Notes under the pieces: generated by a model | What the model was told of the DNA's origin: nothing | The model's input: only the letters and a program-made list of their open reading frames with translations | Databases searched by the model: none | Program-made: the position numbers and the translations under genes | Assembly: GCA_049510295.1 (NCBI GenBank) | Contig: JBEKZC010000005.1 | Coordinates: 17,546 to 81,545 of the forward strand | Reading direction: 5' to 3' | Source: Verrucomicrobiota bacterium | Lineage (GTDB): Bacteria; Verrucomicrobiota; Verrucomicrobiia; Limisphaerales; UBA11358 | DNA: 64,000 nucleotides | Shown here: positions 3,661-62,882 of the stretch, one piece after another | Layout of the letters: the number at the start of each line of letters is the position of its first letter | How positions within the stretch are numbered: position 1 is the first letter of the stretch

Positions 3661-5637
3661 ATGAAAAATATTCGTTGGATGGCAGCAGTTCGCGGGTTGG
3701 CCGTGGCCGGCATGTTTCTTTACGTGTTTTCCCGGTTTGTCCCCTGCAGTTCAGTTGATGATTACCCGATCATTGATGATATTGACAACGCTTGGGCGCA
3801 GGCTCTGCATATTGCCTTCAGCCGGCATTGGCAGTTCGGCCAGGACATTGTTTTTACCTACGGTCCTTGGGGATTCCTAGCCAGAGGCTATTATCCCACG
3901 ACGTATCCGGTTTCCGTGATCGTGTGGGTGATGCTGTCACTGGTTTTTTTATGCGCGGGTTGGCGGCTGGCGTGTCATCTGTCGGACAACCGGCTGTTTT
4001 CCTGGCTCTGGTTGATCGGTTTCACCGGCGTGGCCAGCATTCCGGTCGGGAATGATTTTGACGTCCGGTTGGTTGCCTGGGTTGTGCTGCTGTTGTTCCT
4101 GCATTTTTTTGTGGAGAAAGGCGCGTTCACGGCGACGCAGGCCATGCTGGTGGTGTCACTGGGCTGGTTGAGCCTGGTCAAGTTCACCGGCTTGATGGAA
4201 TCCGTGCTGGTGGTGGCCCTCATTGCGGTGGACAATATCTTCCGTCACCGGCGGTTTCCGTGGATTGTGCCGTTATGGGCGGCCAGTCTGCTGGGCTTTT
4301 GGGTCATGGCCGGACAGCATTTGAGTTCGTTCGGGCCGTACCTGAGCAATTCCTGGCAAATCACCAGCGGTTATACGGAAGCGATGATGCGAACCGGCAG
4401 AACGGAAACCTGGGATGTCAGCGGTTTCCTGTTGCTGGCGGTGCTGCTGTGTACGATGACCGGCGGTGTTGCCTGGGCACGCCTCCGGTTTTGGGGGGCG
4501 CTTCCCCTGGCTGGTTTGGGAGGAACCCTGTTCATCGTTTTCAAACAAGGTTATGTCCGGCAAGACCGGCATGAGGTTGCCGCCGTGATGTCACTTTTGA
4601 TCATCTCTCTGGCGTGTCTGGCGCTGGCCGGGCCGGCAAAGGGGCGAAAAATGAGGCAGGCCCTGCTTCTGTTGGCGGGTTCCGTCCTGATGGCCTCGTC
4701 CGTGTTCGGGTACTGGCTCCCAGGCAATGGGCTGTGGACGCAGTGGGCCGGGACATTCAAACCCAGCAACCTGATGGGTCCAGTCACTGGCGTGTTTACC
4801 GGACATTTGCGAAGTGATTACGAGAAAAATCTCGCGACGATACGGGAGGAATATCCCGTGCCACCGATGAAAGGAGGAGCGGACCTCTATTCCTGTTTTC
4901 AAACCATCCTTTTTGCGCACGGGTTGCCCTATCAACCACGACCGGTCATTCAGAGTTATTCCGCCTACACGCCGGAACTGGCCAGACTGAATGCCGCCCA
5001 CCTGCAGACGGACCGCGCGGCCGGCAATCTTTTGTTTGCGATAGAGCCAATTGACGGTCGTTTTCCCGCATTGGATGATGGTCTTTCCTGGCCGGAATTG
5101 TTGACCCGATACGACCTGCGGGGCACTTCGGACGCCTTGGGAACATATTTGTTCCTGTCGCGGTCGGCGGCACCGCGGGAATATCACCTGACCCCGCTCC
5201 AGGATACGTCGGCCCGTTGGGGAGAACCCGTCACGCCTCCTTCCGCCACCGCCGGTCCGATCTGGGTTGAAATTGAGATAAAAAAAACCCTGATCGGGAC
5301 GGTGGTTTCGGCGCTTTACAAACCCCCGGTGTTGGTGCTGACCGTGTCCCTGCGGGATAACGGGCAACAAGACTTTCGCATGGTTCCCGCCATGGCCCGG
5401 GGCGGATTCCTGTTGTCGCCGGTGATCGGCGACAACCAGGCTTTCGCTGCGCTTGCCTCGGCGGATGGACAACGCGACCTGGCCGGCCAGGAAGTGATGT
5501 CCATGACCGTCCTGGCCGATACCCGATCTTATTCAACGATTTGCTATCAATCGCCGATGGCAGTCCGGTTTTACCGCCTGGATTTTCCCCGGCAGGATTT
5601 CAGAATGGACTGGCCGGTGAAACCAGCGGAACAGTGA
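3661..5637 (+). CDS. large polytopic membrane protein with a C-terminal soluble domain, function unknown (GT-C-like architecture)
   Basis: 658 aa. It has many hydrophobic segments in the first ~400 aa and a ~250-aa hydrophilic C-terminus. No catalytic motif was recognised. Confidence 0.55.
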   Translation: MKNIRWMAAVRGLAVAGMFLYVFSRFVPCSSVDDYPIIDDIDNAWAQALHIAFSRHWQFGQDIVFTYGPWGFLARGYYPTTYPVSVIVWVMLSLVFLCAGWRLACHLSDNRLFSWLWLIGFTGVASIPVGNDFDVRLVAWVVLLLFLHFFVEKGAFTATQAMLVVSLGWLSLVKFTGLMESVLVVALIAVDNIFRHRRFPWIVPLWAASLLGFWVMAGQHLSSFGPYLSNSWQITSGYTEAMMRTGRTETWDVSGFLLLAVLLCTMTGGVAWARLRFWGALPLAGLGGTLFIVFKQGYVRQDRHEVAAVMSLLIISLACLALAGPAKGRKMRQALLLLAGSVLMASSVFGYWLPGNGLWTQWAGTFKPSNLMGPVTGVFTGHLRSDYEKNLATIREEYPVPPMKGGADLYSCFQTILFAHGLPYQPRPVIQSYSAYTPELARLNAAHLQTDRAAGNLLFAIEPIDGRFPALDDGLSWPELLTRYDLRGTSDALGTYLFLSRSAAPREYHLTPLQDTSARWGEPVTPPSATAGPIWVEIEIKKTLIGTVVSALYKPPVLVLTVSLRDNGQQDFRMVPAMARGGFLLSPVIGDNQAFAALASADGQRDLAGQEVMSMTVLADTRSYSTICYQSPMAVRFYRLDFPRQDFRMDWPVKPAEQ

Positions 5638-25412: not shown

Positions 25413-25518
25413 GTAGCCGCGGACGTCAGTCCGCGCCAAAATAATTCTGGGAAAAGACTTCCAAACCGGGAAGTTTGCGCCGACTGATGTCGGCGGCTAC
25501 GGTTCAGGAATTCAACGC
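25413..25518. repeat. GTAG-type REP doublet (REPIN-like), family 1b, intergenic copy
   Basis: GTAGCCGC-GGACgtcaGTCC-GC ... GCGCCGACtgatGTCGGC-GGCTAC followed by GGTTCAGGAATTCAACGC. It has the same ends as the copy inside tsaD. Confidence 0.85.
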
Positions 25519-40836: not shown

Positions 40837-41970
40837 ATGACGGTTCTTGCCCTTGAAACTTCCTGTGACGAAACCAGCGCCGCCGTTGTGCGCGACGGCA
40901 GGGTTTTGTCCAGCACCGTTTCCTCGCAAATCAAGTTGCACGCCGAATACGGCGGCGTCGTGCCGGAACTTGCCGCCCGCGAACATCTGCGGAATTTGAT
41001 TCCCGTCGTGCAAACCGCGTTACGCGATGCGGGTGTGCCGCCGGGACAACTCGACGCTGTTGCTGCCACGCAAGGACCGGGTTTGCCGATGGCCTTGCTC
41101 GTCGGATTCAAAGCGGCGCAAGCCGTCGCGTTTGCCTTGCGGAAGCCATTCATGGGCATCAACCATCACGAAGCGCATTTGTATTCACCCTGGATTTCTC
41201 AACAACCAGTGCCACTCCCTGTAGCCGCGGACGTCAGTCCGCGCACTTTAAGTTCAATGAAAGTCAGCGCCGACTCATGTCGGCGGCTACGGTTCAGGGA
41301 CTCAATGCGCGGAATTTTCTTTGCCGACTTTGCCGCCTTTCAACCAAACGTTTCGCTCATTGTCAGCGGCGGGCACACGATGCTCGTGCGGGTGGAATCC
41401 GAATTGAAACATCGCGTGCTCGGTTCGACGGTGGACGACGCAGCGGGCGAATGTTTCGACAAAACCGGCAAGCTCATGGGGCTGCCATATCCCGCCGGAC
41501 CGGAAATTGACCGGCTGGCAGAGCAGGGGAATCCCAAGGCGTATCATTTTCCGCGACCTTTGCTTAATGACCCCGGTGACGACTTCAGCTTCAGTGGCTT
41601 GAAAACCTCCGTGCGCTATTTTCTCCGCGATCATCCGGGGATTTTGGATGACGCGCAACGGGTGCGCGATTTGTGCGCCAGCATCCAGGCGGCGATTGTC
41701 GAGGTGCTCGTGAAAAAAACCATCCGCGCGGCGAAGCGAAACCACGTCCGTTGTGTGACTGCCTCCGGAGGCGTTACCTGCAATCGCGCCTTGCGTCGCG
41801 AACTGGCGCGCGCGTGCGAGCGTGAAGGTTTAACGCTGCGTCTCGCGGAAAAAAGTCTTTGCACCGACAACGCGGCGATGATCGGCATACTGGCCGAACG
41901 AAAATTGGCGCATCAAATTCCGGCTTCAACCTTCGACGAGGAAATCAAACCTAGCTGGGTTCTTGCTTGA
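40837..41970 (+). CDS. tsaD: tRNA N6-adenosine threonylcarbamoyltransferase TsaD (carries an in-frame repeat insertion)
   Basis: LALETSCDETSAAV, HAEYGGVVPE, GINHHEAHL, VSGGHT, DDAAGECFDKTGK and CTDNAAMI. Confidence 0.93.
   Translation: MTVLALETSCDETSAAVVRDGRVLSSTVSSQIKLHAEYGGVVPELAAREHLRNLIPVVQTALRDAGVPPGQLDAVAATQGPGLPMALLVGFKAAQAVAFALRKPFMGINHHEAHLYSPWISQQPVPLPVAADVSPRTLSSMKVSADSCRRLRFRDSMRGIFFADFAAFQPNVSLIVSGGHTMLVRVESELKHRVLGSTVDDAAGECFDKTGKLMGLPYPAGPEIDRLAEQGNPKAYHFPRPLLNDPGDDFSFSGLKTSVRYFLRDHPGILDDAQRVRDLCASIQAAIVEVLVKKTIRAAKRNHVRCVTASGGVTCNRALRRELARACEREGLTLRLAEKSLCTDNAAMIGILAERKLAHQIPASTFDEEIKPSWVLA
41221..41310. repeat. GTAG-type REP doublet, family 1b, in frame inside tsaD
   Basis: gtagccgcggacgtcagtccgcgc...gcgccgactcatgtcggcggctac + ggttcagggactcaatgc. 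It shares its ends with the intergenic copy at 25413. It is translated as VAADVSPRTLSSMKVSADSCRRLRFRDSMRG. Confidence 0.85.
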
Positions 41971-41989: not shown

Positions 41990-44683
41990 ATGGCTGACCG
42001 TTTGCCCATTTACGAAATCGAGCGCGACATCGTCGTCCGGCTGAAAGCCGGCCGGCGGCTGATTTTGTCCGCGCCGACCGGTTCCGGCAAATCCACGCAG
42101 GTGCCGCAGATGCTGCTCCGGCACGGACTGCTCGGCGACGGGCAGGTGGTGATTCTTCAGCCGCGCCGGCTGGCTACGCGGTTGCTCGCGTCGCGCGTGG
42201 CGCAGGAACTCGGCGTCCAGCTTGGCAACGAAATCGGCTACCAAATCCGCTTCGAAAATGTCACGTCGCCGCAGACGAAAATCCGTTTTGTGACGGAAGG
42301 CGTTTTGTTGCGGCAGATGATTGACGATCCAAAGCTGCGCGGCGTTGCCGTCTTGATCTTCGACGAATTTCACGAGCGGCATCTTTACGGCGACATCACG
42401 CTGGCGCGCGCACTGGATTTGCAGGAGCAGCACCGGCCCGACCTGAATCTCATCGTCATGTCCGCCACGCTCGATGCAGAGTTGCTGGAGGATTATCTTT
42501 CCCAATGTAGCAGCGGACGTGAGTCCGCTCATTCTTCTTCGGCGGAAAGTCAGAGCCGACTCACGTCGGCTGCTACAAATAATTTTCGCTGCTCCATCCT
42601 TTCCTCTGAAGGCCGGGTGTTCCCGGTTGAAATCAAATATGCCGCGGAGCCGGGTTACACGGGCAAACGCCCGGTTTGGGAACAGGCTGCCGAGGCCTTC
42701 AGCCACTACGTCGGCTCCGGTGGGGAAGGGGACGTGCTGGTGTTCATGCCGGGAGGTTATGAGATTTCGCAGACCATCGAGGCCATCCGGCACACTTCGG
42801 AGTCGAAAGGTTTTATTTTGCTTCCGTTGCACGGTGAACTTTCGCCCAAAGACCAGGACGCCGCAGTGGCGCGTTACGGTCAGCGTAAAGTGGTCGTTTC
42901 CACCAATGTCGCCGAGACCTCGCTGACCATTGACGGCATCCGGCTGGTGATTGACAGCGGGCTGGCGCGCATTCCGCGTTACGATCCGTATCGCGGCATC
43001 AATACGCTGCTCATCGAAAAGATCAGCCAATCGTCCGCCGACCAGCGCACGGGTCGGGCGGGTCGCACCGTGCCGGGTGTTTGCATGAGGCTTTGGTCGC
43101 GGGAGGAACATGGACATCGGCTGGTTCAGGAACTGCCCGAAATCAAGCGGCTTGATCTGGCCGAAGTGGTGCTCACGCTCAAAGCCGCCGGGGTCGAAGA
43201 TTTGCGGAAATTCCGCTGGCTCGAAAAGCCGGACGAAATTTCGCTCACCCATGCGGAGGAATTGTTGCTGGATTTGGGTGCGCTCCAACGTAGGACAGGC
43301 GTCCCGCCTGTCTCCAATCAATTTCCCGCTCAAGCGCAACAGAAAGTTGGAGACAGGCTGGAAGCCTGTCCTACGTTAATAACCTCCATCGGCTGCAAGA
43401 TGCTCGCCTTTCCGCTACATCCGCGCTACTCGCGCATGTTGCTCGCGGCGCAGGAATACGGCTGCGTTCATCAAGCCTGCCTCGTTGCCGCGCTCACGCA
43501 GGGGCGCGATTTGCTTTTGCGGAATGTGGACCGCGACACGAATTCGTTCCGTGAGGATTTGCTCGGCGACAAGCCGTCGTCCGACTTCTGGATTCTCATG
43601 CGCGCGTGGACTTATGCGGCCAAAAACCAATTCCGCCTCGACGCCTGCCGCCGGCTTGGCATCCACGCCGTGACCGCGCGGCAGGTCGGGCCGTTGTTCG
43701 AACAGTTCCTTCGCATCGCCAAAGATGAAGGTCTCGATGTAAAAGCACGGGAAGTGAAAGATGATGCTTTGCAAAAGTGCATTCTCATCGGGTTTTCCGA
43801 CCGCGTGGCGCGCCGGCTCGACCAGGGCACACTCCGTTGTGAATTGGTTCATAATCGTCGCGGTGTGCTGGCGCGTGAAAGCGCCGTGCAACACAGTCCC
43901 TTGTTCGTTGCCGCCGAAGTCCGCGAAGTCGAGGGCAGGGAAGTGAACACCATTCTTTCCCTGGCCACCGCCATTGAAGTGGACTGGTTGCGCGAACTGT
44001 TCCCCGAAGACATGGAGTCGGATTTGCATGTCCAATTCGATTCAACGGCAAAACGGGTGCAAGCTGCGGAATTGTTGAAGTTTCGCGGCTTGGCGTTGTC
44101 GGCCAAACGCGTTGAACCGCCGCCGGCCGACATGGCGGCACGATTGCTGGCCGATGAGATAATTGCCGGACGATTGCCGTTGCCGAATTGGGATCACAGT
44201 GTCGAGCAATGGCTGTTGCGGCTGCGCCTGCTTTGCCAGCATTGTCCCGAGCTCCAGCTTCCGCCCATCACCGAAGATGACCGCAAGCACATCATCGGGC
44301 AGCTTTGCCACGGCGCGGTGAGCTACAAGGACATCAAGGAACGTGAAGTAAAACCGGTCGTGATGTCGTGGCTGTCCGAGGCGCAGCGCGGGTTGCTGGA
44401 CAAGCACGCGCCGGAGCGGTTGACGCTGCCAAACGGCCGCACGCCGAAGGTCGCTTACGAGGCAACCGGCTTGCCGCATATTTCGTTGCGCATCCAGGAG
44501 CTTTACGACGTGACCCAGACGCCGAAGATTGCGCTGGGGCGCGTGCCGGTGCTGGTCCACATTCTGACCCCGGGCATGAAGCCGATCCAGATTACACAGG
44601 ACCTGACCAGTTTCTGGCGTGAGCACTATCCGCGCATCAAATCCGAGTTGCAGCGGAAATATCCGAAACACCTGTGGCGATGA
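41990..44683 (+). CDS. hrpB: ATP-dependent RNA helicase HrpB (DEAH box; carries two in-frame repeat insertions)
   Basis: APTGSGKST, FDEFHERH, MSATLD, VVSTNVAETSLTI, QRTGRAGR and a C-terminal HrpB-type domain. The start was chosen at the ATG at 41990. Confidence 0.9.
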   Translation: MADRLPIYEIERDIVVRLKAGRRLILSAPTGSGKSTQVPQMLLRHGLLGDGQVVILQPRRLATRLLASRVAQELGVQLGNEIGYQIRFENVTSPQTKIRFVTEGVLLRQMIDDPKLRGVAVLIFDEFHERHLYGDITLARALDLQEQHRPDLNLIVMSATLDAELLEDYLSQCSSGRESAHSSSAESQSRLTSAATNNFRCSILSSEGRVFPVEIKYAAEPGYTGKRPVWEQAAEAFSHYVGSGGEGDVLVFMPGGYEISQTIEAIRHTSESKGFILLPLHGELSPKDQDAAVARYGQRKVVVSTNVAETSLTIDGIRLVIDSGLARIPRYDPYRGINTLLIEKISQSSADQRTGRAGRTVPGVCMRLWSREEHGHRLVQELPEIKRLDLAEVVLTLKAAGVEDLRKFRWLEKPDEISLTHAEELLLDLGALQRRTGVPPVSNQFPAQAQQKVGDRLEACPTLITSIGCKMLAFPLHPRYSRMLLAAQEYGCVHQACLVAALTQGRDLLLRNVDRDTNSFREDLLGDKPSSDFWILMRAWTYAAKNQFRLDACRRLGIHAVTARQVGPLFEQFLRIAKDEGLDVKAREVKDDALQKCILIGFSDRVARRLDQGTLRCELVHNRRGVLARESAVQHSPLFVAAEVREVEGREVNTILSLATAIEVDWLRELFPEDMESDLHVQFDSTAKRVQAAELLKFRGLALSAKRVEPPPADMAARLLADEIIAGRLPLPNWDHSVEQWLLRLRLLCQHCPELQLPPITEDDRKHIIGQLCHGAVSYKDIKEREVKPVVMSWLSEAQRGLLDKHAPERLTLPNGRTPKVAYEATGLPHISLRIQELYDVTQTPKIALGRVPVLVHILTPGMKPIQITQDLTSFWREHYPRIKSELQRKYPKHLWR
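42507..42576. repeat. GTAG-type REP doublet, family 1a, in frame inside hrpB
   Basis: gtagcagcggacgtgagtccgctc...agagccgactcacgtcggctgctac. It is nearly identical to the intergenic copy at 48116-48184. It is translated as CSSGRESAHSSSAESQSRLTSAAT. Confidence 0.9.
43287..43376. repeat. GTAG-type REP doublet, family 3, exactly 90 nt, in frame inside hrpB
   Basis: AACGTAGGACAGGCgtcccGCCTGTCTCC ... GGAGACAGGCtggaaGCCTGTCCTACGTT. A partial copy lies at 46607-46636. It is translated as QRRTGVPPVSNQFPAQAQQKVGDRLEACPT. Confidence 0.85.
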
Positions 44684-48115: not shown

Positions 48116-48184
48116 GTAGCAGCGGACGTGAGTCCGCTCATTCACATCCGGCGAAAGTCAGAGCCGACTCACATCGGCTGCTAC
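48116..48184. repeat. GTAG-type REP doublet, family 1a, intergenic copy
   Basis: gtagcagcggacgtgagtccgctcattcacatccggcgaaagtcagagccgactcacatcggctgctac. Confidence 0.9.
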
Positions 48185-57379: not shown

Positions 57380-57443
57380 GTAGCATCGAGCCAGTGGCTC
57401 GATAAATCGTTCAGATAAAATCGGCGCACAGCCCCGACGCTAC
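57380..57443. repeat. GTAG-type REP doublet, family 2
   Basis: GTAGCATCGAGCCagtGGCTCGAT ... CGGCGCacaGCCCCGACGCTAC. Its partner copy is at 58999-59049. Confidence 0.8.
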
Positions 57444-57628: not shown

Positions 57629-58504
57629 ATGAGTTTCAGTTTCCCACAAGTCATGGAATTCATCACCGGCGCGCTGCAATTCATCGTCGCCGCTTATGCC
57701 CTGCGACTAAACCGGATATTCGGGACCGCACGCGTGGGCTGGTCGCTGTTCTGGGCCTTTGCGCTTCTGGCAGTGCTCCACTTGTTTCAATCCATTGCGT
57801 CGTTCAATTCCGGCGCACCGTTGGGGGTTGAGATTGAGGTGATGTATTCGCTCATTTCGCTGCTGCTGCTGACCGGCTTGGTCCACATCGAAACCTTGCT
57901 CAAAGAGCGTTTGCGGATGGAGCGCGAGGAACAGCGTTTGCGGGCCGAATTGGAATCTGAAGTCAAAAAGAAAACGGCGTATCTGAGCCGGGCCATCGAG
58001 GAGCTGCAATCGGAAATTGACGGACGCAAACGAATGGAGGCGGAGGTCGAGAAGACGCACAAGGAATTGCTCGCCGCTTCCCGCCAGGCGGGGATGGTGG
58101 AAATAGCCGCCGGGGTGCTGCATAACGTGGGCAATATGCTCAAGAGCGCCGATGTTTCCGCCAACCTGGTTTCCGACCAGGTGAAGCAATCCAAAATCGC
58201 CAATATCGTCCATGTCGGCGCCCTGATACGCGAACACGTGAAGGACCTGGGTGACTTCATGGCGCGCGATCCGAGGGGCCAAAAGTTGCCGGTGTATATC
58301 GCGCAACTGGCCGAGCATCTGGCCAATGAGCAAACCACCCTCTCAAGTGAGCTGGAATCCCTCAGAAAGAACATCGAGGAAGCCGAAGTGGAGCAGCAAA
58401 GTTATACTGAACTCATGAGCAAGAATGACGTGGCAAAAGCCACTGCCCCAGTCGAACAAGCGCCAGCCATGAATGGCGGCACGCCGGTGCGGCCCAGCGT
58501 ATAG
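57629..58504 (+). CDS. membrane sensor-kinase-like protein lacking a catalytic ATP-binding domain
   Basis: It has 3-4 TM segments, a coiled coil, and a DHp-like segment (AAGVLHNVGNMLKS ... EQQSYTEL). The ORF then ends without N/G1/G2 boxes. Confidence 0.55.
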   Translation: MSFSFPQVMEFITGALQFIVAAYALRLNRIFGTARVGWSLFWAFALLAVLHLFQSIASFNSGAPLGVEIEVMYSLISLLLLTGLVHIETLLKERLRMEREEQRLRAELESEVKKKTAYLSRAIEELQSEIDGRKRMEAEVEKTHKELLAASRQAGMVEIAAGVLHNVGNMLKSADVSANLVSDQVKQSKIANIVHVGALIREHVKDLGDFMARDPRGQKLPVYIAQLAEHLANEQTTLSSELESLRKNIEEAEVEQQSYTELMSKNDVAKATAPVEQAPAMNGGTPVRPSV

Positions 58505-58569: not shown

Positions 58570-58926
58570 TCAGCGTGGTTTGTCGTCATGGTCCAACAAT
58601 CGGGCGAAGTAAAAGCAGCCGGCCGCGATGAGGATTGAAACCGCCACGATGATTTCCGCCTGTGTGCCGGGCTGTTTCAGGTCATCGAACCACTCCTCAA
58701 TTACCGGGCCCATTTTGCCGTAAAGCATGCCCATCTGCCGCGTCTGGGCCTTGTTGTATCCCAGCATGGAGAGGTCATCCGACACATCAGGAGAACGCGT
58801 CCCCAGCCAATAAACCAGGCCCGCGCTGCCAAGGCCCAGCACCAGCACGATGATGCCGATCATCCTGAGCTGCGCACTCCGCTTGAAGGACGAATGGGGA
58901 CCGGAGGTTTTGTCATTTGTCGTCAT
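58570..58926 (-). CDS. small two-TM membrane protein
   Basis: 118 aa with two hydrophobic segments. No motif was recognised. Confidence 0.45.
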   Translation of the reverse strand: MTTNDKTSGPHSSFKRSAQLRMIGIIVLVLGLGSAGLVYWLGTRSPDVSDDLSMLGYNKAQTRQMGMLYGKMGPVIEEWFDDLKQPGTQAEIIVAVSILIAAGCFYFARLLDHDDKPR

Positions 58927-58998
58927 GTGCGCAGTGTTTTACGCGTACCGTCAGTGAAACACAAGTCCGCCGCCGGGTGCTAGTGTCCTAAATTTCGT

Positions 58999-59049
58999 GT
59001 AGCGTCGAGCCGGCGTCTCGACCAAATCGGCGCAAAGCGCCGACACTAC
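58999..59049. repeat. GTAG-type REP doublet, family 2, nested in a longer palindrome
   Basis: GTAGCGTCGAG..CTCGAC ... TCGGCGCaaaGCGCCGACACTAC. It is flanked by the outer inverted repeat GTGTCCTAAATTT / AAAATTAGGACAC. Confidence 0.8.
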
Positions 59050-59113
59050 AACAAAATTAGGACACCGGGTGCTGGATTGCCATTTGCGCCTGAACCGGCA
59101 ACACTGTTTGCCC

Positions 59114-59392
59114 ATGAAACACAATTCGTATTTCGACGGAAAAGTTCAGAGTCTGGCTGTGAACACATCGGAAGGCCCAGCCACGGTGGGCGTCATCGAG
59201 CCGGGCAAATACACCTTCAAGACCGACTCGGAAGAACACATGCACATCGTCGCCGGCACGTTGAAGTCGAAGCTTCCAGGCGCCACGTGGCAGGCGTTTG
59301 TCAGGGGCCAGTTCTTTGTCGTTCCCGCGCAGGCCTCTTTTGATGTCGAGGCCACCGCCGACGTGGCCTACATCTGCTATTACAAAAAGTAA
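59114..59392 (+). CDS. ppnP: pyrimidine/purine nucleoside phosphorylase PpnP (DUF1255)
   Basis: MKHNSYFDGKVQSLAV...GVIEPGKYTF.T...E.M.IV.G. The start was moved to the ATG at 59114. Confidence 0.85.
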   Translation: MKHNSYFDGKVQSLAVNTSEGPATVGVIEPGKYTFKTDSEEHMHIVAGTLKSKLPGATWQAFVRGQFFVVPAQASFDVEATADVAYICYYKK

Positions 59393-59395
59393 GAT

Positions 59396-59453
59396 ATAGC
59401 GGCGCTCTGTGAGCGCCGGAATATGGCGACGGTCATAGACCGCCGCTACAAAA
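59396..59453. repeat. palindromic REP-like element
   Basis: TAGCGGCG...CGCCGCTACAAAA with the inner hairpin GGCGCTctgtgAGCGCC. It is related to 11862-11886. Confidence 0.65.
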
Positions 59454-59522
59454 GAACGATCACCTCCGGCGACGCGCCTAAATTCCAACAGCAGGCGGCC
59501 GTGCTCCCAAATCAAAAACAGA

Positions 59523-59903
59523 TCACAACCTCACGGACTTGCGCGGGACGCGATTTGGCCGGGACGATTTTTGAGACTTCTTGCTGTGGGCGGCGATTTG
59601 AATCGCACGGTGCGCCCATGCCACCAGTTCTTCCCGGTTTTCCAGCACGTCCGGCGGCACTTCGTGATAACCCATCGTCATCACGCGCCCCTTCATCTCG
59701 TAGGTGAACGGCGGCATCCCACGCGCCGTGTAATCCGCCTGCGACTGCGCGTCCGTTTTGAAAAACAGCCGGCCCTCGTCCAAAATCCCGAAGAACCGCC
59801 CGCCGGAATATAACCCATGCGCGCCGAACATCGCCTTGGCATGCACGTCCGGCAGCGCGCTTAACTGGTCGAGCACAAATTCTTTGAAGGAGTCGTCAGG
59901 CAT
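59523..59903 (-). CDS. TfoX N-terminal-domain protein
   Basis: MPDDSFKEFVLDQL...KAMFGAHGLYSGGRFFGILDEGRLFFKTD. Confidence 0.8.
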   Translation of the reverse strand: MPDDSFKEFVLDQLSALPDVHAKAMFGAHGLYSGGRFFGILDEGRLFFKTDAQSQADYTARGMPPFTYEMKGRVMTMGYHEVPPDVLENREELVAWAHRAIQIAAHSKKSQKSSRPNRVPRKSVRL

Positions 59904-60191
59904 AATGCAAACGTGGGAGAAGATTTAACGCAAAGAACGCGACCTGTCACGCCGTAGCCGGAAGCGAAGGTGGAAGGTGCAAGCCAAAAAGCAATTGCGG
60001 TAACTCTGGGAACATTGCCATTGCAGCGGGTGGAGTTGTTTGTCGGTTGCCTTAAAGCTGGTCGGGATATCAGCCTTTGCTCTGAAGCTTCGGTGCGACT
60101 GGTTGGCTTCTCCAGAGGTGTGCGCCATGGTTAAAAAATATGTATTACCTGAAGGAATACAGGAAGTTACGCAAATTGCCAATAATTCGCC

Positions 60192-60220
60192 TTGTCTTTT
60201 TCTGGAACATGTCCTATACT
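60192..60220 (+). promoter_or_regulatory. candidate promoter of receiver gene 1 (near-leaderless)
   Basis: TTGTCT (60192-97), a 17-nt spacer, then TATACT (60215-20), with the ATG at 60233. The homologous position before receiver gene 2 has diverged (CATGCT). Confidence 0.4.
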
Positions 60221-60232
60221 TAGACAGTTGTT

Positions 60233-60706
60233 ATGATATTAAATGTTCCAACTCAAAAAATCCTGGTTGTTGATGACAATCCGATAATCCTGAAGGTCTT
60301 GTCTTCGGCCTTCAAAGCCAGAGGCTACGAGGTGTTTGCCGCCGTTGACGGTCCCGAGGCCTTCATCATCGTGAGCCGGGAACAGCCGGACCTCATTTTG
60401 CTCGATATTTTCTTTCCGCCGGATCTTTTCCAAAGCGGCAACACTTGGGATGCGTTTAAGATTATGAACTGGCTCCAACGCATGGGCGGACCCCAAGCCA
60501 GGCACATCTCCGTAATCATCATGTCCGGCGCTGACCCGGGGGAAATCAAGGATCGTTGTCTGGCCGCCGGCGCGCTGGACTACTTCCAAAAACCGATCCA
60601 GATGCCCGAGTTGCTGGACGCCATTCAGCAAATCTTCTGCCCGGCTGTGAGCGAAGTGCCTCTTGAATTGGCGGCCATTTCAAATTCCGACAGCCTGCGC
60701 CTTTAG
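60233..60706 (+). CDS. stand-alone CheY-like receiver protein (copy 1)
   Basis: ILVVDDN, DLILLDIFFPPD (phospho-acceptor Asp), IIMSG and FQKP. Confidence 0.9.
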   Translation: MILNVPTQKILVVDDNPIILKVLSSAFKARGYEVFAAVDGPEAFIIVSREQPDLILLDIFFPPDLFQSGNTWDAFKIMNWLQRMGGPQARHISVIIMSGADPGEIKDRCLAAGALDYFQKPIQMPELLDAIQQIFCPAVSEVPLELAAISNSDSLRL

Positions 60707-60805
60707 CCAAACATCCGGTGGCAATGCGCTCAACGGGGCGGGGGCAAATTGGCAATAATTTGCCTTCTTTTTTTCTGGAGTATTTGTCATGCTGAGGCCG
60801 TTGTT

Positions 60806-61279
60806 ATGGTGTCAAGTGTTCCCACCAAAAAAATTCTGGTTGTTGATGATAATCAGATAATCCTGAACGTCTTGTCGTCGGCCCTTAAAGCCGGAGGCTA
60901 CGAGGTGTTTGCCGCCGTTGACGGTCCCGCAGCCTTCACGGTCGTGCTTCAGGAACAGCCGGACCTCATCCTGCTCGATATTTTCTTTCCGCCCGATATC
61001 TTCCAGAGTGGCAACACTTGGGATGCGTTTCAGATTATGCACTGGCTCCAACGCATGGGCGGACCCCAAGCCAGCCGCACCCCCGTATTCGTCATGTCCG
61101 GGGCTGAACCGGGGGAAATCAGGGATCGCTGTCTGGCCGCCGGCGCAGTGGACTACTTCCAAAAACCGGTCAGGATACCCGAACTGCTGGACGCCATTCA
61201 GCAAATCTTCCGCCCGAGTGTGAGCGATGTGCCGCTTGAATTGGCGGCCATTTCAAATTCCGATCGCTTGCGCCTCTAG
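60806..61279 (+). CDS. stand-alone CheY-like receiver protein (copy 2, tandem paralogue)
   Basis: About 80% aa identity to copy 1 over the full length (by eye). The duplication unit of ~573 bp includes the upstream region. The start was moved to the ATG at 60806. Confidence 0.9.
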   Translation: MVSSVPTKKILVVDDNQIILNVLSSALKAGGYEVFAAVDGPAAFTVVLQEQPDLILLDIFFPPDIFQSGNTWDAFQIMHWLQRMGGPQASRTPVFVMSGAEPGEIRDRCLAAGAVDYFQKPVRIPELLDAIQQIFRPSVSDVPLELAAISNSDRLRL

Positions 61280-61285
61280 CCAAAC

Positions 61286-61337
61286 CTTCGGCACAACGCG
61301 CCCAACTGGTCGAGGGAAAATTCTTTGAAGGAGTCGT
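61286..61337 (-). repeat. copy of the tfoX 5' coding region lacking the ATG
   Basis: aactggtcgagggaaaattctttgaaggagtcgt differs by 3 mismatches from 59862-59895. Confidence 0.85.
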
Positions 61338-61563
61338 TAACCCCAATGGGGTTGCGTCATTCAGCCCAACGTTGCCCCGAATGCTTTCGGGGCTACGTTG
61401 GGTTCACGGATCAAAACGGAATCAACCCTGACAGGGTTGAATCAACCTGTGAAATAAAGGGATGCAACCCCGATGGGGTTGGAAATGATTTTGGAACGGA
61501 TGACCCAGGGTAGCGCGTTCCGCACAACCCTGGGCTGAGAGATGGAATCCCGTTGGGATTCTG
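61338..61563. repeat. cluster of at least 5 short hairpins (REP-like cluster)
   Basis: AACCCCaatGGGGTT, CCCAACGT..ACGTTGGG with inner CCCCGAAtgcttTCGGGG, CAACCCTgacAGGGTTG, CAACCCCgatGGGGTTG, ACCCAGGG..CCCTGGGC and GAATCCCgttGGGATTC. Confidence 0.8.
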
Positions 61564-61627
61564 GCCCGCACCTCCGGCAACGCCTCAACTGGTCGAGAAC
61601 AAATTCTTTGAAGGAGTCGTCAGGCAT
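61564..61627 (-). repeat. copy of the tfoX 5' end including the ATG
   Basis: A 41-nt core has 1 mismatch against 59863-59903. It encodes MPDDSFKEFVLDQL, then runs into the hairpin cluster. It sits 1 nt after the stop of the 61629-62147 gene. Confidence 0.9.
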
Positions 61628-61628
61628 A

Positions 61629-62147
61629 TCACCAACCGCGTCCGCGTTTTACTATCGGAATTTTTCTTCGTATGACGATTTTTTCATTCGAGGCGCGTCC
61701 GGGGAAATTGGTGTGAAATACTAACTTCATATCCGCAATGCTCAACCTCTCGATTTTTTTGTCACCGATAGTCAATTGTGCCAAAAAAAAGAACAGCACG
61801 CATTCTTCATCTGTGATGTCTTCAAAATCATAAGTAACCCAAATACCTCCTGCTGGGCGTTCAATTGAGCGCCTTTCGGGAAAGCAACTGTAGCTCAATT
61901 CGCATTCATATGGCTTTCTGGCTGGAAGCTGAATCCAACAGCGAGGACGCTCCTTGAGGAAAGCTGAAAGCCCGAAGGGTTTCATCGGCTCACCCAACTT
62001 CAACGAGGGCCGTGAATTCCGTAATTTTGCGCGAAAATCAGCATCAGCGTAAACAATTAAATGAGTTCTTAAATGAAGAGCTATCGCGCCGTTCTTCTTT
62101 TTGTAGGCTCGAAAAGTCGTATCGGCTAATTCAATCGCCTTTTTCAC
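61629..62147 (-). CDS. hypothetical protein (AT-rich gene)
   Basis: 172 aa with no recognised motif. GC is clearly lower than the surroundings (by eye). Confidence 0.45.
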   Translation of the reverse strand: MKKAIELADTTFRAYKKKNGAIALHLRTHLIVYADADFRAKLRNSRPSLKLGEPMKPFGLSAFLKERPRCWIQLPARKPYECELSYSCFPERRSIERPAGGIWVTYDFEDITDEECVLFFFLAQLTIGDKKIERLSIADMKLVFHTNFPGRASNEKIVIRRKIPIVKRGRGW

Positions 62148-62202
62148 AAGCCATGAAATTTAGAAGATTGTTTGGCAAATGAGGTCAATGCTTAAGAGCG
62201 CA

Positions 62203-62352
62203 TCAGCTTTCCTTTTTTTCCATTTTCGCCCAAGTGTCTTTCAATGTAATCGTCCGATTAAGCACCAGCTTGCCGGGCGCGCTGTCTTTATCCAACGCGA
62301 AGTAGGCGAGGCGCTTGAATTGGTAGTGCAACTCCGGCTTCGCTTCCTTTGC
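62203..62352 (-). pseudogene. glnS: 3'-terminal remnant of a glutaminyl-tRNA synthetase gene
   Basis: A 49-codon open stretch, AKEAKPELHYQFKRLAYFALDKDSAPGKLVLNRTITLKDTWAKMEKKES*, resembles the conserved GlnRS C-terminus (FQFER.GYF..D....LVFNRTV.LRD.W). An in-frame stop lies immediately upstream. Confidence 0.6.
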
Positions 62353-62363
62353 TCAGGTGTTTT

Positions 62364-62882
62364 TCATTTTGCAAGTGGCGGCGGGGCGTTCTGTTGGCTC
62401 TTCTGCAACGCCTGTTTGCCGATTTTGACCAGAACGAGCTTCCGCAAATTGTCGGACGGTTTTGAGGGGTCCGGCCCTTTACACATGCCGGCGATGTTCC
62501 GCGTAATCTGGACCGGGGTCAGGATGAGCCCCCAGGGAAATCCCCACCAGCCGAGCACGGCCGAGAACAGCACACCGCCCAACTGGTTTTTGGTCGCGCA
62601 GGAACGGCAGGAGACCTGCGGCGTGGTGGTCCACCGCGTCAGCACCAGGGCCGACCAGACCCGATGGACTTTGTGAACGTCAATGGGGCCGAGTCCACGG
62701 CACTTGGGACAGTTGCCCCGGAAAATTTCCTCCACCTGCCGGTCAATCACGTCCGGCGGGACTTTTTGGGCAAGGCTGAGGACATAAGCGTTGGTGAGGC
62801 ATTTTTTGTTGCAGAAGCGCTGGGTGCCGGAACTCAAGCCGCCCATTATAATCATTGACCCGCAATAACCGCATTTTGCCAT
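62364..62882 (-). CDS. zinc-ribbon membrane protein, function unknown
   Basis: Cys pairs are CGYCG..FCNKKC and CPKCRG..CRSC. A TM hairpin follows with GWWGFPWG. Confidence 0.5.
   Translation of the reverse strand: MAKCGYCGSMIIMGGLSSGTQRFCNKKCLTNAYVLSLAQKVPPDVIDRQVEEIFRGNCPKCRGLGPIDVHKVHRVWSALVLTRWTTTPQVSCRSCATKNQLGGVLFSAVLGWWGFPWGLILTPVQITRNIAGMCKGPDPSKPSDNLRKLVLVKIGKQALQKSQQNAPPPLAK

Follow-up and report, generated by a model that had tools for sequence, protein, structure and literature searches.

Tandem accretion at the end of a gene is familiar from the SCCmec composite arrays at rlmH, REPs are hotspots of recombination and insertion, and classical homology-facilitated illegitimate recombination combines insertion with the deletion of recipient DNA. 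To our knowledge, RAYT/REPIN biology includes neither the duplication of adjacent coding sequence nor cassette-like arrays, and we know of no core-gene hotspot that bears arrays of co-oriented flanking-gene fragments. Among accretion islands at a gene end, the tRNA-fragment-punctuated islands of Prochlorococcus (tycheposons) are described in one report (bioRxiv 10.1101/2020.12.28.424599), and the tandem accretion of CIME/ICE or phage-ICE elements in another (PMC13651849). The parts of the literature that bear on our other comparisons deal with REP/REPIN-RAYT systems (PMC3116915, PMC3337134, PMC5581495), with homology-facilitated illegitimate recombination (PMC3240628) and with integration hotspots between core genes, e.g. 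in E. coli (PMC2617782).

The locus analyzed here lies in a stretch of 64,000 nucleotides from a Verrucomicrobiota bacterium (hereafter the window), in which copies of the first 50-70 bases of a tfoX gene accompany two receiver genes, a hairpin cluster and an AT-rich gene. These copies are best read as scars and re-usable landing pads left by repeated recombination, rather than as components of a known mobile element.

The tfoX copies and their neighborhood in the window

The tfoX gene of the window is intact (Table 1), and its protein has over 1600 homologues, of which the nearest with a name is from Limisphaerales; it contains TfoX_N alone, without the TfoX_C domain that accompanies it in TfoX/Sxy competence regulators. 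With the functional segment ("FRAG") as the query, blastn-short identified three co-oriented copies of the tfoX 5' end, the functional one included, as the sole matches across the entire 64-kb window. A repeat search placed them in one family, D2 (59853-59907 as the reference, 61294-61348 at 80% and 61577-61631 at 78%, all in the same orientation), and a 35-mer from the repeat had two real matches with up to 3 mismatches, compared to none in 100 shuffles of the window. These three analyses agree with the original prediction that the repeated sequence is the tfoX 5' end in a constant orientation. Nor is it a dispersed repeat unrelated to tfoX, a possibility raised at the outset: it occupies one locus in the window, and in a GTDB scan the matches were confined to a single contig in each Verrucomicrobial genome.

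Copy A begins, as had been noted, with an ATG located 1 nt past the stop codon of the 172-aa AT-rich ORF; its nt 1-29 are perfect, one nucleotide is deleted after nt 44, and the homology stops at nt ~68. Copy B, rightly described as lacking the ATG, begins at tfoX nt 8 because a hairpin takes the place of codons 1-2, and its distal end adjoins the stop codon of receiver gene 2. This distal end is an ancient junction with the receiver stop codon; the sequence ...GCGTTG(TG)CCGGATGTTTGG/CTAGAGGCG (slash at the joint) is kept downstream of most receivers, including ones with as little as 65% protein identity, and is absent or unrecognizable in L035 and L079 (L numbers denote loci of the comparison set described below). 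A further vestige of a fragment end is tentative; it shares repeat family D3 with the functional copy's end and that of copy A, and otherwise it was recognized by eye.

Table 1. Features of the tfoX locus, with positions in the window
Feature	Position	Strand	Details
REPIN	58983..59065	.	two inverted GTAG-type REP hairpins; inverted repeat I1
tfoX, intact, TfoX_N only	59523..59903	-	126 aa; Pfam TfoX_N, E 1.2e-27
Functional copy of the repeated segment	59829..59903	-	CDS nt 1-75
Divergent tfoX/receiver intergenic region	59904..60232	.	
Two head-to-tail 573-bp duplication units	60178..61322	+	~60178-60750 and 60751-61322
Receiver gene 1	60233..60706	+	157 aa, single-domain response regulator; Pfam Response_reg, 4.5e-18
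Partial tfoX 5' fragment	60707..60750	-	equivalent to ~nt 25-58; cut at the AAATT join
Receiver gene 2	60806..61279	+	157 aa; Pfam Response_reg, 6.3e-17
Copy B, without start codon	61286..61337	-	tfoX nt 8 to ~51-58
226-nt cluster of six hairpins	61338..61563	.	inverted repeats; unique in the window
Copy A, with ATG	61561..61627	-	tfoX nt 1-68
AT-rich ORF	61629..62147	-	172 aa; no Pfam or NCBIfam match
Glutaminyl-tRNA synthetase (GlnRS) gene 3'-end remnant	62203..62349	-	residues ~570-622; tblastn 64%, E 2.5e-12
Possible further fragment-end vestige	62326..62343	-	CCGGAGTTGCAC; tentative
Zn-ribbon/membrane gene	62364..62882	-	172 aa; shuffled module

The proteins encoded by the two receiver genes are 79% identical (tblastn), and the genes belong to units with a repeat spacing of 573 (family D1) and 90% column identity in the alignment, which bears out the predicted tandem duplicate of ~573 bp and ~80% aa identity. 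The head-to-tail arrangement with a 573-bp period and a novel microhomology joint in AAATT (60173-60177 / 60746-60750 / 61318-61322) is that of a tandem duplication, and the join links the receiver promoter region with a tfoX fragment. The pair is an old tandem duplicate, and the 573-bp duplication is common to the window, L111 and L033. A degenerate fourth copy, originally placed at 60712-60750, is real but not independent: by the alignment of the two duplication units, it is the distal part of the equivalent of copy B, copied along with the receiver gene, and the same sequence is found in L111 and L033. The suggestion of four equivalent att-like sites had to be abandoned, this copy being a by-product of duplication by an illegitimate AAATT join and not by repeat-to-repeat recombination.

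The intergenic region between tfoX and receiver gene 1 is 82-91% identical over ~315 nt in L025, L111, L033, L039 and L041. It carries a promoter-like site of receiver gene 1 at 60192-60220 (promoter scan) and, upstream of tfoX, the motif CTTTGCGTTAAAT at 59923-59935 (motif search), which is also found, inverted, after many solo fragments. Since this motif ("M") occurs only once in the window, we discarded the idea that it is the terminal inverted repeat of a dispersed MITE.

The 226-nt cluster, predicted to contain at least five REP-like hairpins, does contain six, and its fold is far stronger than those of shuffled sequences (z -7.6 and -8.3), but it does not belong to the REP family associated with RAYT: it shows no sequence similarity to that family, its motifs are unique in the window, and GTAG precedes only one of its six hairpins (by eye). 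It is conserved in L016 (97.8%) and L120 (93%). A known RNA was also considered and rejected, as an Rfam search of 58800-62400 returned no match at E<=1. REPINs of the GTAG family that flanks the RAYT gene in relatives (L020, L054, L060, L142) do occur in the window, where they flank tfoX and Ppnp; besides the one listed in Table 1 (REPIN fold z -6.1), a pattern search located them at 57380-57443 and 59398-59450.

The AT-rich ORF (GC 0.41-0.49 versus ~0.57 nearby) has 33 homologues with 35-100% identity, which occupy unrelated genomic contexts; it is a real gene and a lineage-specific insert. It is preceded by the GlnRS remnant, which argues that the AT-rich gene came within an inserted block; blastn aligned this remnant to the 3' termini of genuine GlnRS genes in over 20 loci, and in L156/L157 GlnRS and the AT-rich ORF were matched contiguously. 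The proposal of an ancestral operon of this gene and tfoX found no support: the AT-rich gene lies upstream in 0 of ~110 related tfoX loci. For the window this means that tfoX is intact, and that the AT-rich gene is an imported accessory gene rather than an operon partner. The Zn-ribbon gene occurs at differing array positions in L014, L016, L017, L020, L025, L068, L120, L131, L151 and L153. Remnants of gene ends, such as that of GlnRS in the window, are further represented by ZnRib(1-34) in L025 and c26(119-159) in L053.

The repeat structure is not an assembly artefact. The same layout is present in all 10 contigs listed, of 23 with an identical tfoX protein, and these come from different samples and assemblers, which dispels the suspicion of such an artefact that had accompanied the prediction. 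Among the contigs of the window's own population no deletion or amplification variants were seen, and the array is currently stable there; a 735-nt size variant in L004 and L008 was rejected, the difference being due to a missed gene call.

Fragments at module joints in related Verrucomicrobiota

The comparison set comprised 119 non-redundant loci from related Verrucomicrobiota, in which ORFs were used only if backed by Pfam, tblastn or the gene calls of the collection. These loci contain 189 tfoX-start fragments, of which 84 are solo, and wherever tfoX is intact the fragments are co-oriented with it (169/169). At least two copies are found in 44 loci, with a maximum of 5, and on CAWDPX010000018 two fragments are 20 kb apart. 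The fragment-bearing relatives are soil and peat bacteria.

The fragments sit at the joints of modules, among them GlnRS, a 489-aa gene (C-terminal ...LAKEHANKPK, distinct from GlnRS according to tblastn and Pfam), the Zn-ribbon gene, a 225-aa gene, the receiver and a RAYT transposase. The order of these modules differs between lineages, and therefore the repeat delimits exchangeable units. L016 (at 3874) has the same copy A and hairpin cluster as the window with another gene on the left, L120 has the same hairpin cluster and copy B with another module on the right, and L111 has both receivers, but the 489-aa gene instead of the hairpins and the AT-rich gene. To this extent the predicted att-like repeat bounding each unit holds, although its reading as a site-specific att was not supported. 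Units with fragments on both sides were found in the window, L016, L089, L129 and L020, and direct co-oriented target repeats around inserted units are a feature shared with att elements.

The right ends of the solo fragments fall at tfoX nt 46-84 in 81 of 83 cases; the sequences that they abut, at least 25 in number, are unrelated and have no motif in common. Microhomology is seen at the joints in L131 (GGGCGA, between tfoX nt 68-73 and the GlnRS tail) and in L020 and L060 (GGCGCG). The left sides correspond to the native upstream neighbor of an intact tfoX in some lineage, for example the 489-aa gene (L018, L022, L038), RAYT (L054, L142), c26 (L068) or the motif-bearing promoter (L012, L032). 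The duplication can reach upstream of the ATG, including the 5' UTR and promoter in L011 and the GlnRS tail in L087. L020 displays a fresh event, an 84-nt duplication (83/84 identical) on both sides of a RAYT-REPIN unit.

Next to the receiver, the fragment is joined to at least 11 different left flanks, and its type of start codon follows the flank; the functional tfoX 5' ends are mosaics of two allele types. At nt 32 and nt 38, respectively, 35% and 42% of the solo copies carry a C that occurs in 0% of the functional ones, which hints at constraint or at a common lineage of the solos' own. The solo copies are no closer to their own functional copy than to other functional copies, thus local gene conversion is not evident; antisense co-evolution was not seen either, and both ideas were rejected. 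The receiver and tfoX are always divergent neighbors in the related loci compared.

The RAYT of L020 (positions 4445-4942, 166 aa) matches NCBIfam NF047646 at 89.2 bits (cut-off 80) and, weakly, Pfam Y1_Tnp. RAYT lies beside the tfoX ATG or a fragment in L020, L052/L054, L060 and L142, an adjacency seen in 5 lineages, and GTAG/CTAC REP palindromes in inverted pairs flank it in L020, L054, L060, L142 and L156. By the curated RAYT model and the inverted REP pairs, the relatives possess a REP/REPIN-RAYT system, of which the window has the REPINs.

Probable recombination scars and alternative explanations

On balance, and with reservations, we think it probable that the copies are recombination scars turned into re-usable homology arms, and that the tfoX 5' end is a clade-wide insertion and rearrangement hotspot. 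As the anatomy of the junctions suggests, tfoX nt ~46-84 would repeatedly suffer breaks or template switches, and repair would copy a block composed of someone's upstream region and a tfoX start, taken from a sister chromosome, an ectopic copy or the DNA of a related lineage, with the other end of the block joined illegitimately. The product would be a truncated tfoX start (nt 1 to ~50-84), followed by the new block and by the intact tfoX. The same conserved ~60 nt close every block, so that homologous recombination between any two copies, or with an incoming tfoX start, can later swap, delete or add blocks, as the comparison of lineages shows, and would keep the fragments fresh. The four layers of the window would then be an ancient receiver block, with a fragment junction common to most receivers of the clade, a hairpin-cluster block, a block of the GlnRS remnant and the AT-rich gene, and the microhomology-mediated tandem duplication of the receiver. 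A dedicated recombinase would not be required, and the associated RAYT and REPs of the relatives may supply the breaks.

The junctions, with a native neighbor on the left and AAATT, GGGCGA or GGCGCG at the joints, may reflect a one-sided anchor. Some observations speak against the scar model: the tight clustering of the right ends is not explained by plain illegitimate recombination, the solo copies share C32/C38 variants that functional copies never show, and they are no nearer to their own functional copy than to others. If the model is true, the locus is an unusually legible record of a gene-turnover hotspot without mobile-element machinery, in which each event leaves a truncated gene start as a dated and oriented scar, and such scars serve as portable homology arms that ease further exchange. 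It would offer a concrete, testable model for integrase-less hotspots, with co-oriented flanking-gene fragments as a marker searchable elsewhere. The ~80 independent-looking ends in 40 nt of one gene could indicate a specific DNA-breaking activity, with RAYT as the suspect; if RAYT is the breaker, this would be a genome-structuring role for REP-associated transposases, which has long been suspected.

It seems unlikely to us that the tfoX 5' end is instead a true attachment site for integron-like or island accretion, served by an unknown integrase or by the HUH transposase RAYT; each module would be a cassette with its own copy of the site, and RAYT would act on a REP-like hairpin in tfoX. Such accretion would account for the strict orientation (169/169 co-oriented), the confinement of right ends to a 40-nt zone, the consensus variants of the solo copies and the existence of discrete modules, e.g. 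the 225-aa gene, which in L089, L129 and L068 lies between two fragments. It would also agree with the RAYT genes abutting the tfoX ATG or a fragment (L020, L052/L054, L060, L142), with GTAG-type REPs at most 20 nt from fragment ends (L020, L025, L078, L087, L120, L129) and with the fresh duplication in L020, which flanks exactly the RAYT-REPIN unit. However, no integrase or recombinase Pfam families were found in the gene tables of L001-L015 or in ten scanned cargo ORFs (Kelch, PL4 lyase, MFS, arabinofuranosidase, GSDH or unknowns), a search that covered parts of each genome. Instead of the fixed crossover of an att element, the fragments have ends differing by up to 38 nt, flanks without a common motif and duplications of variable upstream extent, while intI, attI and folded attC sites were absent from the loci inspected. 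The fragment has neither dyad symmetry (by eye) nor an attC-like fold (z -0.3 and -0.2 for the tfoX 5' segment). Furthermore, Y1 HUH transposases insert without target duplication, REPs are absent from most junctions, and no RAYT was detected in the 64-kb window by tblastn/blastn. A search of IMG/VR for the specific fragment pattern was negative, on which ground a phage attP origin was rejected; six IMG/VR matches to a shorter 19-mer are probably due to chance. With no integrase found, ends spread over nt 46-84, motif-free flanks and no IMG/VR match, the idea of att-like, site-specific recombination in the original prediction was not sustained.

More doubtful still is a previously undescribed integrase-less cassette system of Limisphaerales-like Verrucomicrobiota, with the ~60-nt tfoX start as its site, in which an HUH enzyme (RAYT) or a trans factor would nick the REP-like hairpin at tfoX nt 58-90 and capture or reshuffle the modules. 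This joint proposal would comprise single-gene modules, each with a site, in an integron-like array with tfoX at its expression end, and a RAYT that is a domesticated HUH enzyme natively placed against the tfoX start codon. The 8-bp GC hairpin predicted at nt 58-90 is also the candidate cause of the clustered right ends in the scar model, but thermodynamically it is not unusual (z -0.3), and the tfoX of the window has a weakened form of it; fragility driven by this hairpin is at best a weak idea, the region being no more structured than shuffles.

It is improbable that the fragment is a regulatory element, retained behind the receiver because the 3' UTR of the receiver mRNA is antisense to the tfoX translation-initiation region and couples receiver expression to TfoX synthesis, with the copies not behind a receiver as by-products. 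The junction kept behind most receivers (with the exceptions named above), the constant divergent arrangement and the 90-97% identity of the fragment to tfoX nt 1-55 in many lineages are consistent with this role. Yet the complementarity of the fragment to its own tfoX is 0.836 versus 0.828 to that of other lineages, and an A-type functional start may be paired with a P-type fragment, as in L011, with 8 mismatches in 40 nt. Moreover, L035, L058, L079 and the distal receivers of L017 and L151 have a decayed or almost vanished fragment, copy B of the window lacks the start-codon region, and solo fragments are also found far from any receiver. A purely local history, with one insertion at tfoX and later duplications, or an assembly artefact, fits the simple tandem duplication of the receivers but is hardly tenable, as it is already contradicted by the same architecture in 10 of the 10 contigs listed (of 23 independent ones) and by the 84 solo fragments across related lineages, GTDB MAGs included.

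Comparison with known systems

Like accretion islands, the locus has a variable region in which co-oriented partial copies of one gene end stand between successive blocks, with the intact gene kept at one edge and many blocks lacking a mobility gene. Unlike in those islands, it is a protein-coding gene whose 5' end is repeated, and every block therefore has to carry a start codon, often together with a promoter; in addition, no integrase was found, the ends of the repeat are unfixed (nt 46-84), and the blocks are mostly single ordinary genes. With integron cassette arrays it shares small, mostly single-gene units, each followed by a recombination-prone repeat, in an order and content that vary between relatives. 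It differs from them in the absence of IntI, attI or an attC-type folded site, in having a conserved coding sequence as the repeat, and in that some units, such as the receiver, are on the opposite strand with their own promoter.

The resemblance to REP/REPIN-RAYT systems lies in the single RAYT with GTAG-type REP doublets directly upstream of tfoX in relatives and in the REPINs of that family around tfoX and Ppnp in the window, whereas the 226-nt hairpin cluster of the window is outside this REP family. Homology-facilitated illegitimate recombination, with which duplications from transformation or repair are grouped, resembles the proposed events in that one end of an incoming block would be anchored by a brief stretch of conserved homology (the tfoX start in our case) and the other joined at microhomologies of 5-6 nt; in contrast to it, the anchor is duplicated each time at this locus, and the illegitimate ends lie within a 40-nt zone. 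As in the hotspots between core genes, a single interval (GlnRS or the 489-aa gene ... tfoX-Ppnp) concentrates the gene turnover of the whole clade.

Copies of the tfoX start in the window

The tfoX gene of the window, whose nearest named relative in a homologue search is from Limisphaerales, lies beside two receiver genes and several pieces of its own 5' end (Table; nt numbers are positions in the tfoX coding sequence, in gene orientation). A repeat search found three copies of the tfoX start, all co-oriented, and the repeat 35-mer had no match in 100 shuffles, which bears out the original prediction of several such copies; a whole-window search found no further copy elsewhere in the 64 kb. 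In copy A the match to the gene is perfect over nt 1-29, one nucleotide is missing after nt 44, and homology gives out at nt ~68, at the start of the hairpin cluster. The "degenerate" copy does exist, but it is not the independent copy it was taken for, having been carried along by a tandem duplication (period 573 bp) that took in the receiver gene with its promoter and part of copy B, namely the distal one. The novel joint of this duplication lies in AAATT, a pentanucleotide found both in the promoter region of the receiver and, in antisense, in tfoX codons 8-9. The receivers, estimated by eye as ~80% identical tandem duplicates, share 79% of their residues, and a consensus scan agrees with the accompanying remark on their promoters, with TTGTCT-17-TATACT found before receiver 1 only. 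The joint also makes a 12-bp stem with a T-run (GGGGGCAAATTGGCAATAATTTGCCTTC TTTTTTT), a terminator-like hairpin absent before the duplication.

Coordinates of features in the window and in related loci (L handles; positions count within each locus)
Feature	Position	Strand	Remarks
REPINs (three)	57380-57443; 58983-59065; 59398-59450		inverted GTAG-type REP pairs, within 2.1 kb around tfoX and Ppnp
291-aa H-box protein gene	57629-58504	plus	no Pfam hit on record
tfoX, TfoX_N only, 126 aa	59523-59903	minus	intact; Pfam E 1.2e-27
Divergent intergenic region, 329 nt			adjoins tfoX, upstream in gene orientation
Receiver 1, receiver-only response regulator	60233-60706	plus	
"Degenerate" tfoX-start copy	60707-60750		product of tandem duplication
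Terminator-like hairpin	60740-60767	plus	right after receiver 1
Receiver 2, receiver-only response regulator	60806-61279	plus	
Copy B of tfoX 5' end	61286-61337		from nt 8 (hairpin abuts) to nt ~51-58 at receiver 2 stop codon
Hairpin cluster, 226 nt	61338-61563; L016:3938-4162; L120:7061-7283		93-98% conserved in three lineages
Copy A of tfoX 5' end	61561-61627		ATG kept, 1 nt past AT-rich ORF stop
AT-rich ORF, 172 aa	61629-62147	minus	
Glutaminyl-tRNA synthetase (GlnRS) 3'-end remnant, ~140 nt	62203-62349	minus	tblastn E 2.5e-12; between Zn-ribbon gene and AT-rich ORF
Second GlnRS-tail-like piece, ~25 nt	62340-62362		directly after Zn-ribbon stop
Zn-ribbon/membrane gene, 172 aa	62364-62882	minus	
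Other paired-hairpin repeats	25418-25495; 41226-41285; 42512-42571; 48121-48138; also 43294-43370		
Motif-bracketed fragments (examples)	L018:1700-1840; L016:5720-5850; L011:4950-5200		
Own-family REPIN in RAYT gene	L054:4715-4775		
Fragment abutting Ppnp	L139:1819-3375		no tfoX body found
Two full-length tfoX genes	L068:4998-7700		

The layout is the same in all 10 contigs shown, of 23 independent contigs with identical TfoX that were read, so the array is not the assembly artefact that had been considered, nor is it visibly polymorphic in this population. If copy A recombined with the gene start (29 nt perfectly identical), 1.7 kb would be lost and an intact tfoX would become fused to the AT-rich ORF; if copy B did so (20 nt perfectly identical), the receivers would be removed and tfoX would lack a start codon. 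Neither product was seen among the 10 contigs inspected. The hairpin cluster is unique within the window, folds strongly on either strand (z -7.6 and -8.3 vs shuffles) and is matched by no Rfam family. In the related locus L120 the inner stem of its longest hairpin is remodelled to a different short stem, three sequences being too few for covariation. A constant neighbour of the tfoX-receiver pair encodes a conserved membrane/coiled-coil protein with a histidine-kinase-like H-box (..AAGVLHNVGNM..), which could be the partner of the receiver.

Fragments and exchanged modules in related loci

We collected 80 metagenomic loci with TfoX 72-93% identical, the loci of three closer homologues, and GTDB stretches with the exact repeat 19-mer, and used nt 1-75 of the tfoX coding sequence as the query against them. 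The 119 non-redundant loci contain 189 tfoX-start copies, 105 of them full-length gene starts and 84 "solos", i.e. fragments without the tfoX body. Two or more copies occur in 44/119 loci and three or more in 19/119, with a maximum of five, and wherever a full tfoX is present the fragments are co-oriented with it (169/169). In the GTDB scan the matches were confined to one contig per Verrucomicrobial genome (in one case 20 kb apart), and the specific fragment pattern had no match in IMG/VR. The fragments are thus restricted to the tfoX locus in the window and in GTDB alike, which disposes of a dispersed repeat unrelated to tfoX. Two loci show the array in an extreme form: in L139 a fragment abuts Ppnp, an apparent case of tfoX loss, and in L068 the two full-length tfoX genes are separated by a 225-aa gene, a fragment and a receiver.

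The interval upstream of tfoX, and sometimes also the short tfoX-Ppnp interval, is hypervariable. Among its modules are GlnRS, a 489-aa gene ending ...LAKEHANKPK, GH28-like, thioredoxin-like, 225-aa and Zn-ribbon genes, a 159-aa gene (c26), an MFS transporter, a PL4 lyase, an arabinofuranosidase, a Kelch protein, a RAYT (REP-associated tyrosine transposase) and the receiver, in varying order and combination with solos in between. L016 (TfoX 93%) has copy A, hairpin cluster, copy B and receiver as in the window, with c26 to the left of the copy A ATG vs the AT-rich ORF in the window; in L120 hairpin cluster and copy B are followed by a REPIN (an inverted pair of REPs, short palindromic repeats) and the 225-aa gene, not by the receiver. 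The two-receiver duplication of the window recurs in L111 and L033, where copy B is complete, starts with TTG and has the 489-aa gene before it. Flanks have therefore been swapped at breakpoints that fall within the fragment or on its edge, in agreement with the claim that the repeat bounds exchangeable units.

The AT-rich ORF belongs to a real, conserved gene family: an NCBI "Verrucomicrobiota bacterium" MAG encodes the same protein (100% identity), and there are 33 homologues, with no domain match for its 172 aa. Relatives lie after GlnRS and before a RAYT in L156 and L157, where GlnRS is contiguous with the equivalent of the GlnRS remnant and AT-rich block; others adjoin BstXI-type restriction-modification genes, SIR2/HerA and RHS genes, a DUF433 gene, or a Y1 transposase. 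These neighbourhoods (L156-L163) are of an accessory or defence-like kind, the RHS neighbour being a toxin, and the family twice adjoins Y1-type transposases; the ORF may be a mobile accessory or defence gene. It was never found upstream of tfoX in the loci surveyed, and the pairing proposed as an ancestral operon is not the ancestral state here; by analogy to every other left flank, the ORF may once have abutted the tfoX start in an unsampled donor. The GlnRS remnant of the window (..FALDKDSAPGKLVLNRTITLKDTWAK) is accompanied by the second, shorter tail-like piece, which recurs after the Zn-ribbon stop in L015, L020 and L060; duplicated GlnRS tails occur in L087 and L076. Other gene-end remnants of the region are ZnRib residues 1-34 (L025) and c26 residues 119-159 (L053).

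Joints and a possible two-stage origin

At the right end, tfoX homology stops at nt 46-84 in 81/83 solos, and at least 25 unrelated sequences without a common motif follow. The "att-like" character ascribed to the repeat found no support: no recombinase turned up in the L001-L015 gene tables or in ten cargo ORFs scanned, and right ends scattered over this zone define no fixed crossover point. Microhomology was seen at several joints, namely AAATT in the window, GGGCGA (tfoX nt 68-73/GlnRS tail) in L131 and GGCGCG in L020 and L060. An 8-bp GC stem (GTGCGCGCC-N12-GGCGCGCA) overlaps the right-end zone in most relatives; it is weakened in the window's tfoX, and the stem region is not more structured than shuffles. 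In each class, the left flank is found natively upstream of an intact tfoX in another lineage (the 489-aa gene in L018, L022 and L038, a RAYT with REPs in L054 and L142, c26 in L068, a motif-bearing promoter in L012 and L032), hence the apparent sharp left edge at the ATG only marks the limit of between-lineage conservation. The duplicated piece takes in the 5' UTR and promoter in L011, and the last ~37 nt of GlnRS in L087. A fresh duplication is seen in L020, where a RAYT flanked on either side by REP doublets separates the promoter and tfoX nt 1-84 from a complete tfoX downstream; the duplicated 84-nt stretches agree at 83/84 positions. Many solos have the tfoX upstream motif (GCGTCTTTGCGTTAAAT) to their left and an inverted copy of it (TTCATTTTCAACGCCAAGGCGC) to their right; since the window contains the motif only once, it is no dispersed repeat.

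The junction between fragment end and receiver stop (...GCGTTG(TG)CCGGATGTTTGG|CTAGAGGCG) lies behind most receivers, down to 65% identity; in L035 and L079 it is missing or cannot be recognised. The start codon of the receiver-adjacent fragment has at least 11 different sequences in front of it, and its type (ATG, GTG or TTG) tracks the left flank. Solos resemble functional starts (0.83) nearly as these resemble each other (0.85), most keep the start codon, and none of the 67 ungapped solos analysed has an in-frame stop, a filter that drops copies with early frameshifts. Functional 5' ends are mosaics of two allele types.

A two-stage process would account for these features, as far as sequence comparison can tell. 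In rare founding events the tfoX 5' region would break, or the polymerase would switch template, and a block of "upstream region + tfoX start" would be copied from the sister, an ectopic copy or a related lineage; illegitimate joining of its far end would leave the block with a truncated start on its upstream side and a restored, intact tfoX on its downstream side. Frequent follow-up by ordinary homologous recombination, possible because every block finishes with one and the same conserved stretch of ~60 nt, would then replace, delete or add blocks and overwrite old fragments with fresh functional sequence. Such overwriting would explain why the fragment at the ancient receiver junction is, in many lineages, still 90-97% identical, why solos are as close to functional starts as those are to each other, and why stops are absent and start codons mostly kept. 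The layers of the window would be, from old to young, the receiver block, the hairpin block (also in L016 and L120), and the GlnRS remnant with the AT-rich block, the AAATT-mediated tandem duplication, shared with L111 and L033, being independent of them.

A site-specific or RAYT-driven cassette system is rather unlikely, even though the confinement of right ends to 40 nt, which speaks for it, is the strongest hint of something more specific. It would also accommodate the C at nt 32 or nt 38 found in about 40% of solos and never in functional copies, from which a solo lineage could be propagating as such. These changes (CTC>CCC and CAG>CCG) occur in many different flank contexts (L016, L017, L020, L025, L028, L037, L039, L041, L043, L061, L064, L087, L089 and L120). 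The link to the RAYT is one of association: a RAYT (NCBIfam NF047646, above cut-off) lies directly against the tfoX start codon or a fragment in L020, L052/L054, L060 and L142 and within the same interval in L079, L156 and L157, and REPINs of the family that surrounds the RAYT gene in relatives border tfoX and Ppnp in the window and adjoin several fragment ends. However, REPs are missing at most joints, the 64-kb window has no RAYT gene, and Y1 HUH enzymes are not known to duplicate their targets. In L054 a REPIN of its own family interrupts the RAYT gene, which is intact in L020, L060 and L142. Further paired hairpins in the window (CGCGGACGTCAGTCCGCG ... CGCCGACTGATGTCGGCG, and GACAGGC-N5-GCCTGTC pairs) look like one or two additional REP-like families. 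That the receiver-adjacent fragment is an antisense regulator of tfoX is a weak proposal, as it does not co-vary with its cognate tfoX and has decayed in several lineages.

Relation to known systems

The closest analogues are gene-end accretion islands (tRNA-fragment arrays, tycheposons, SCC arrays, CIME/ICE tandems) and integron arrays, which are defined by a recombinase and a fixed crossover point; we looked for both in the tfoX loci and cargo ORFs examined and found neither. A limited literature search returned no description of hotspot-marking arrays made of 5' fragments of a protein-coding gene. The proposed process has parallels in homology-facilitated illegitimate recombination (PMC3240628) and in recombination at hotspots that lie between core genes (PMC2617782), with the difference that here every event duplicates the anchor.
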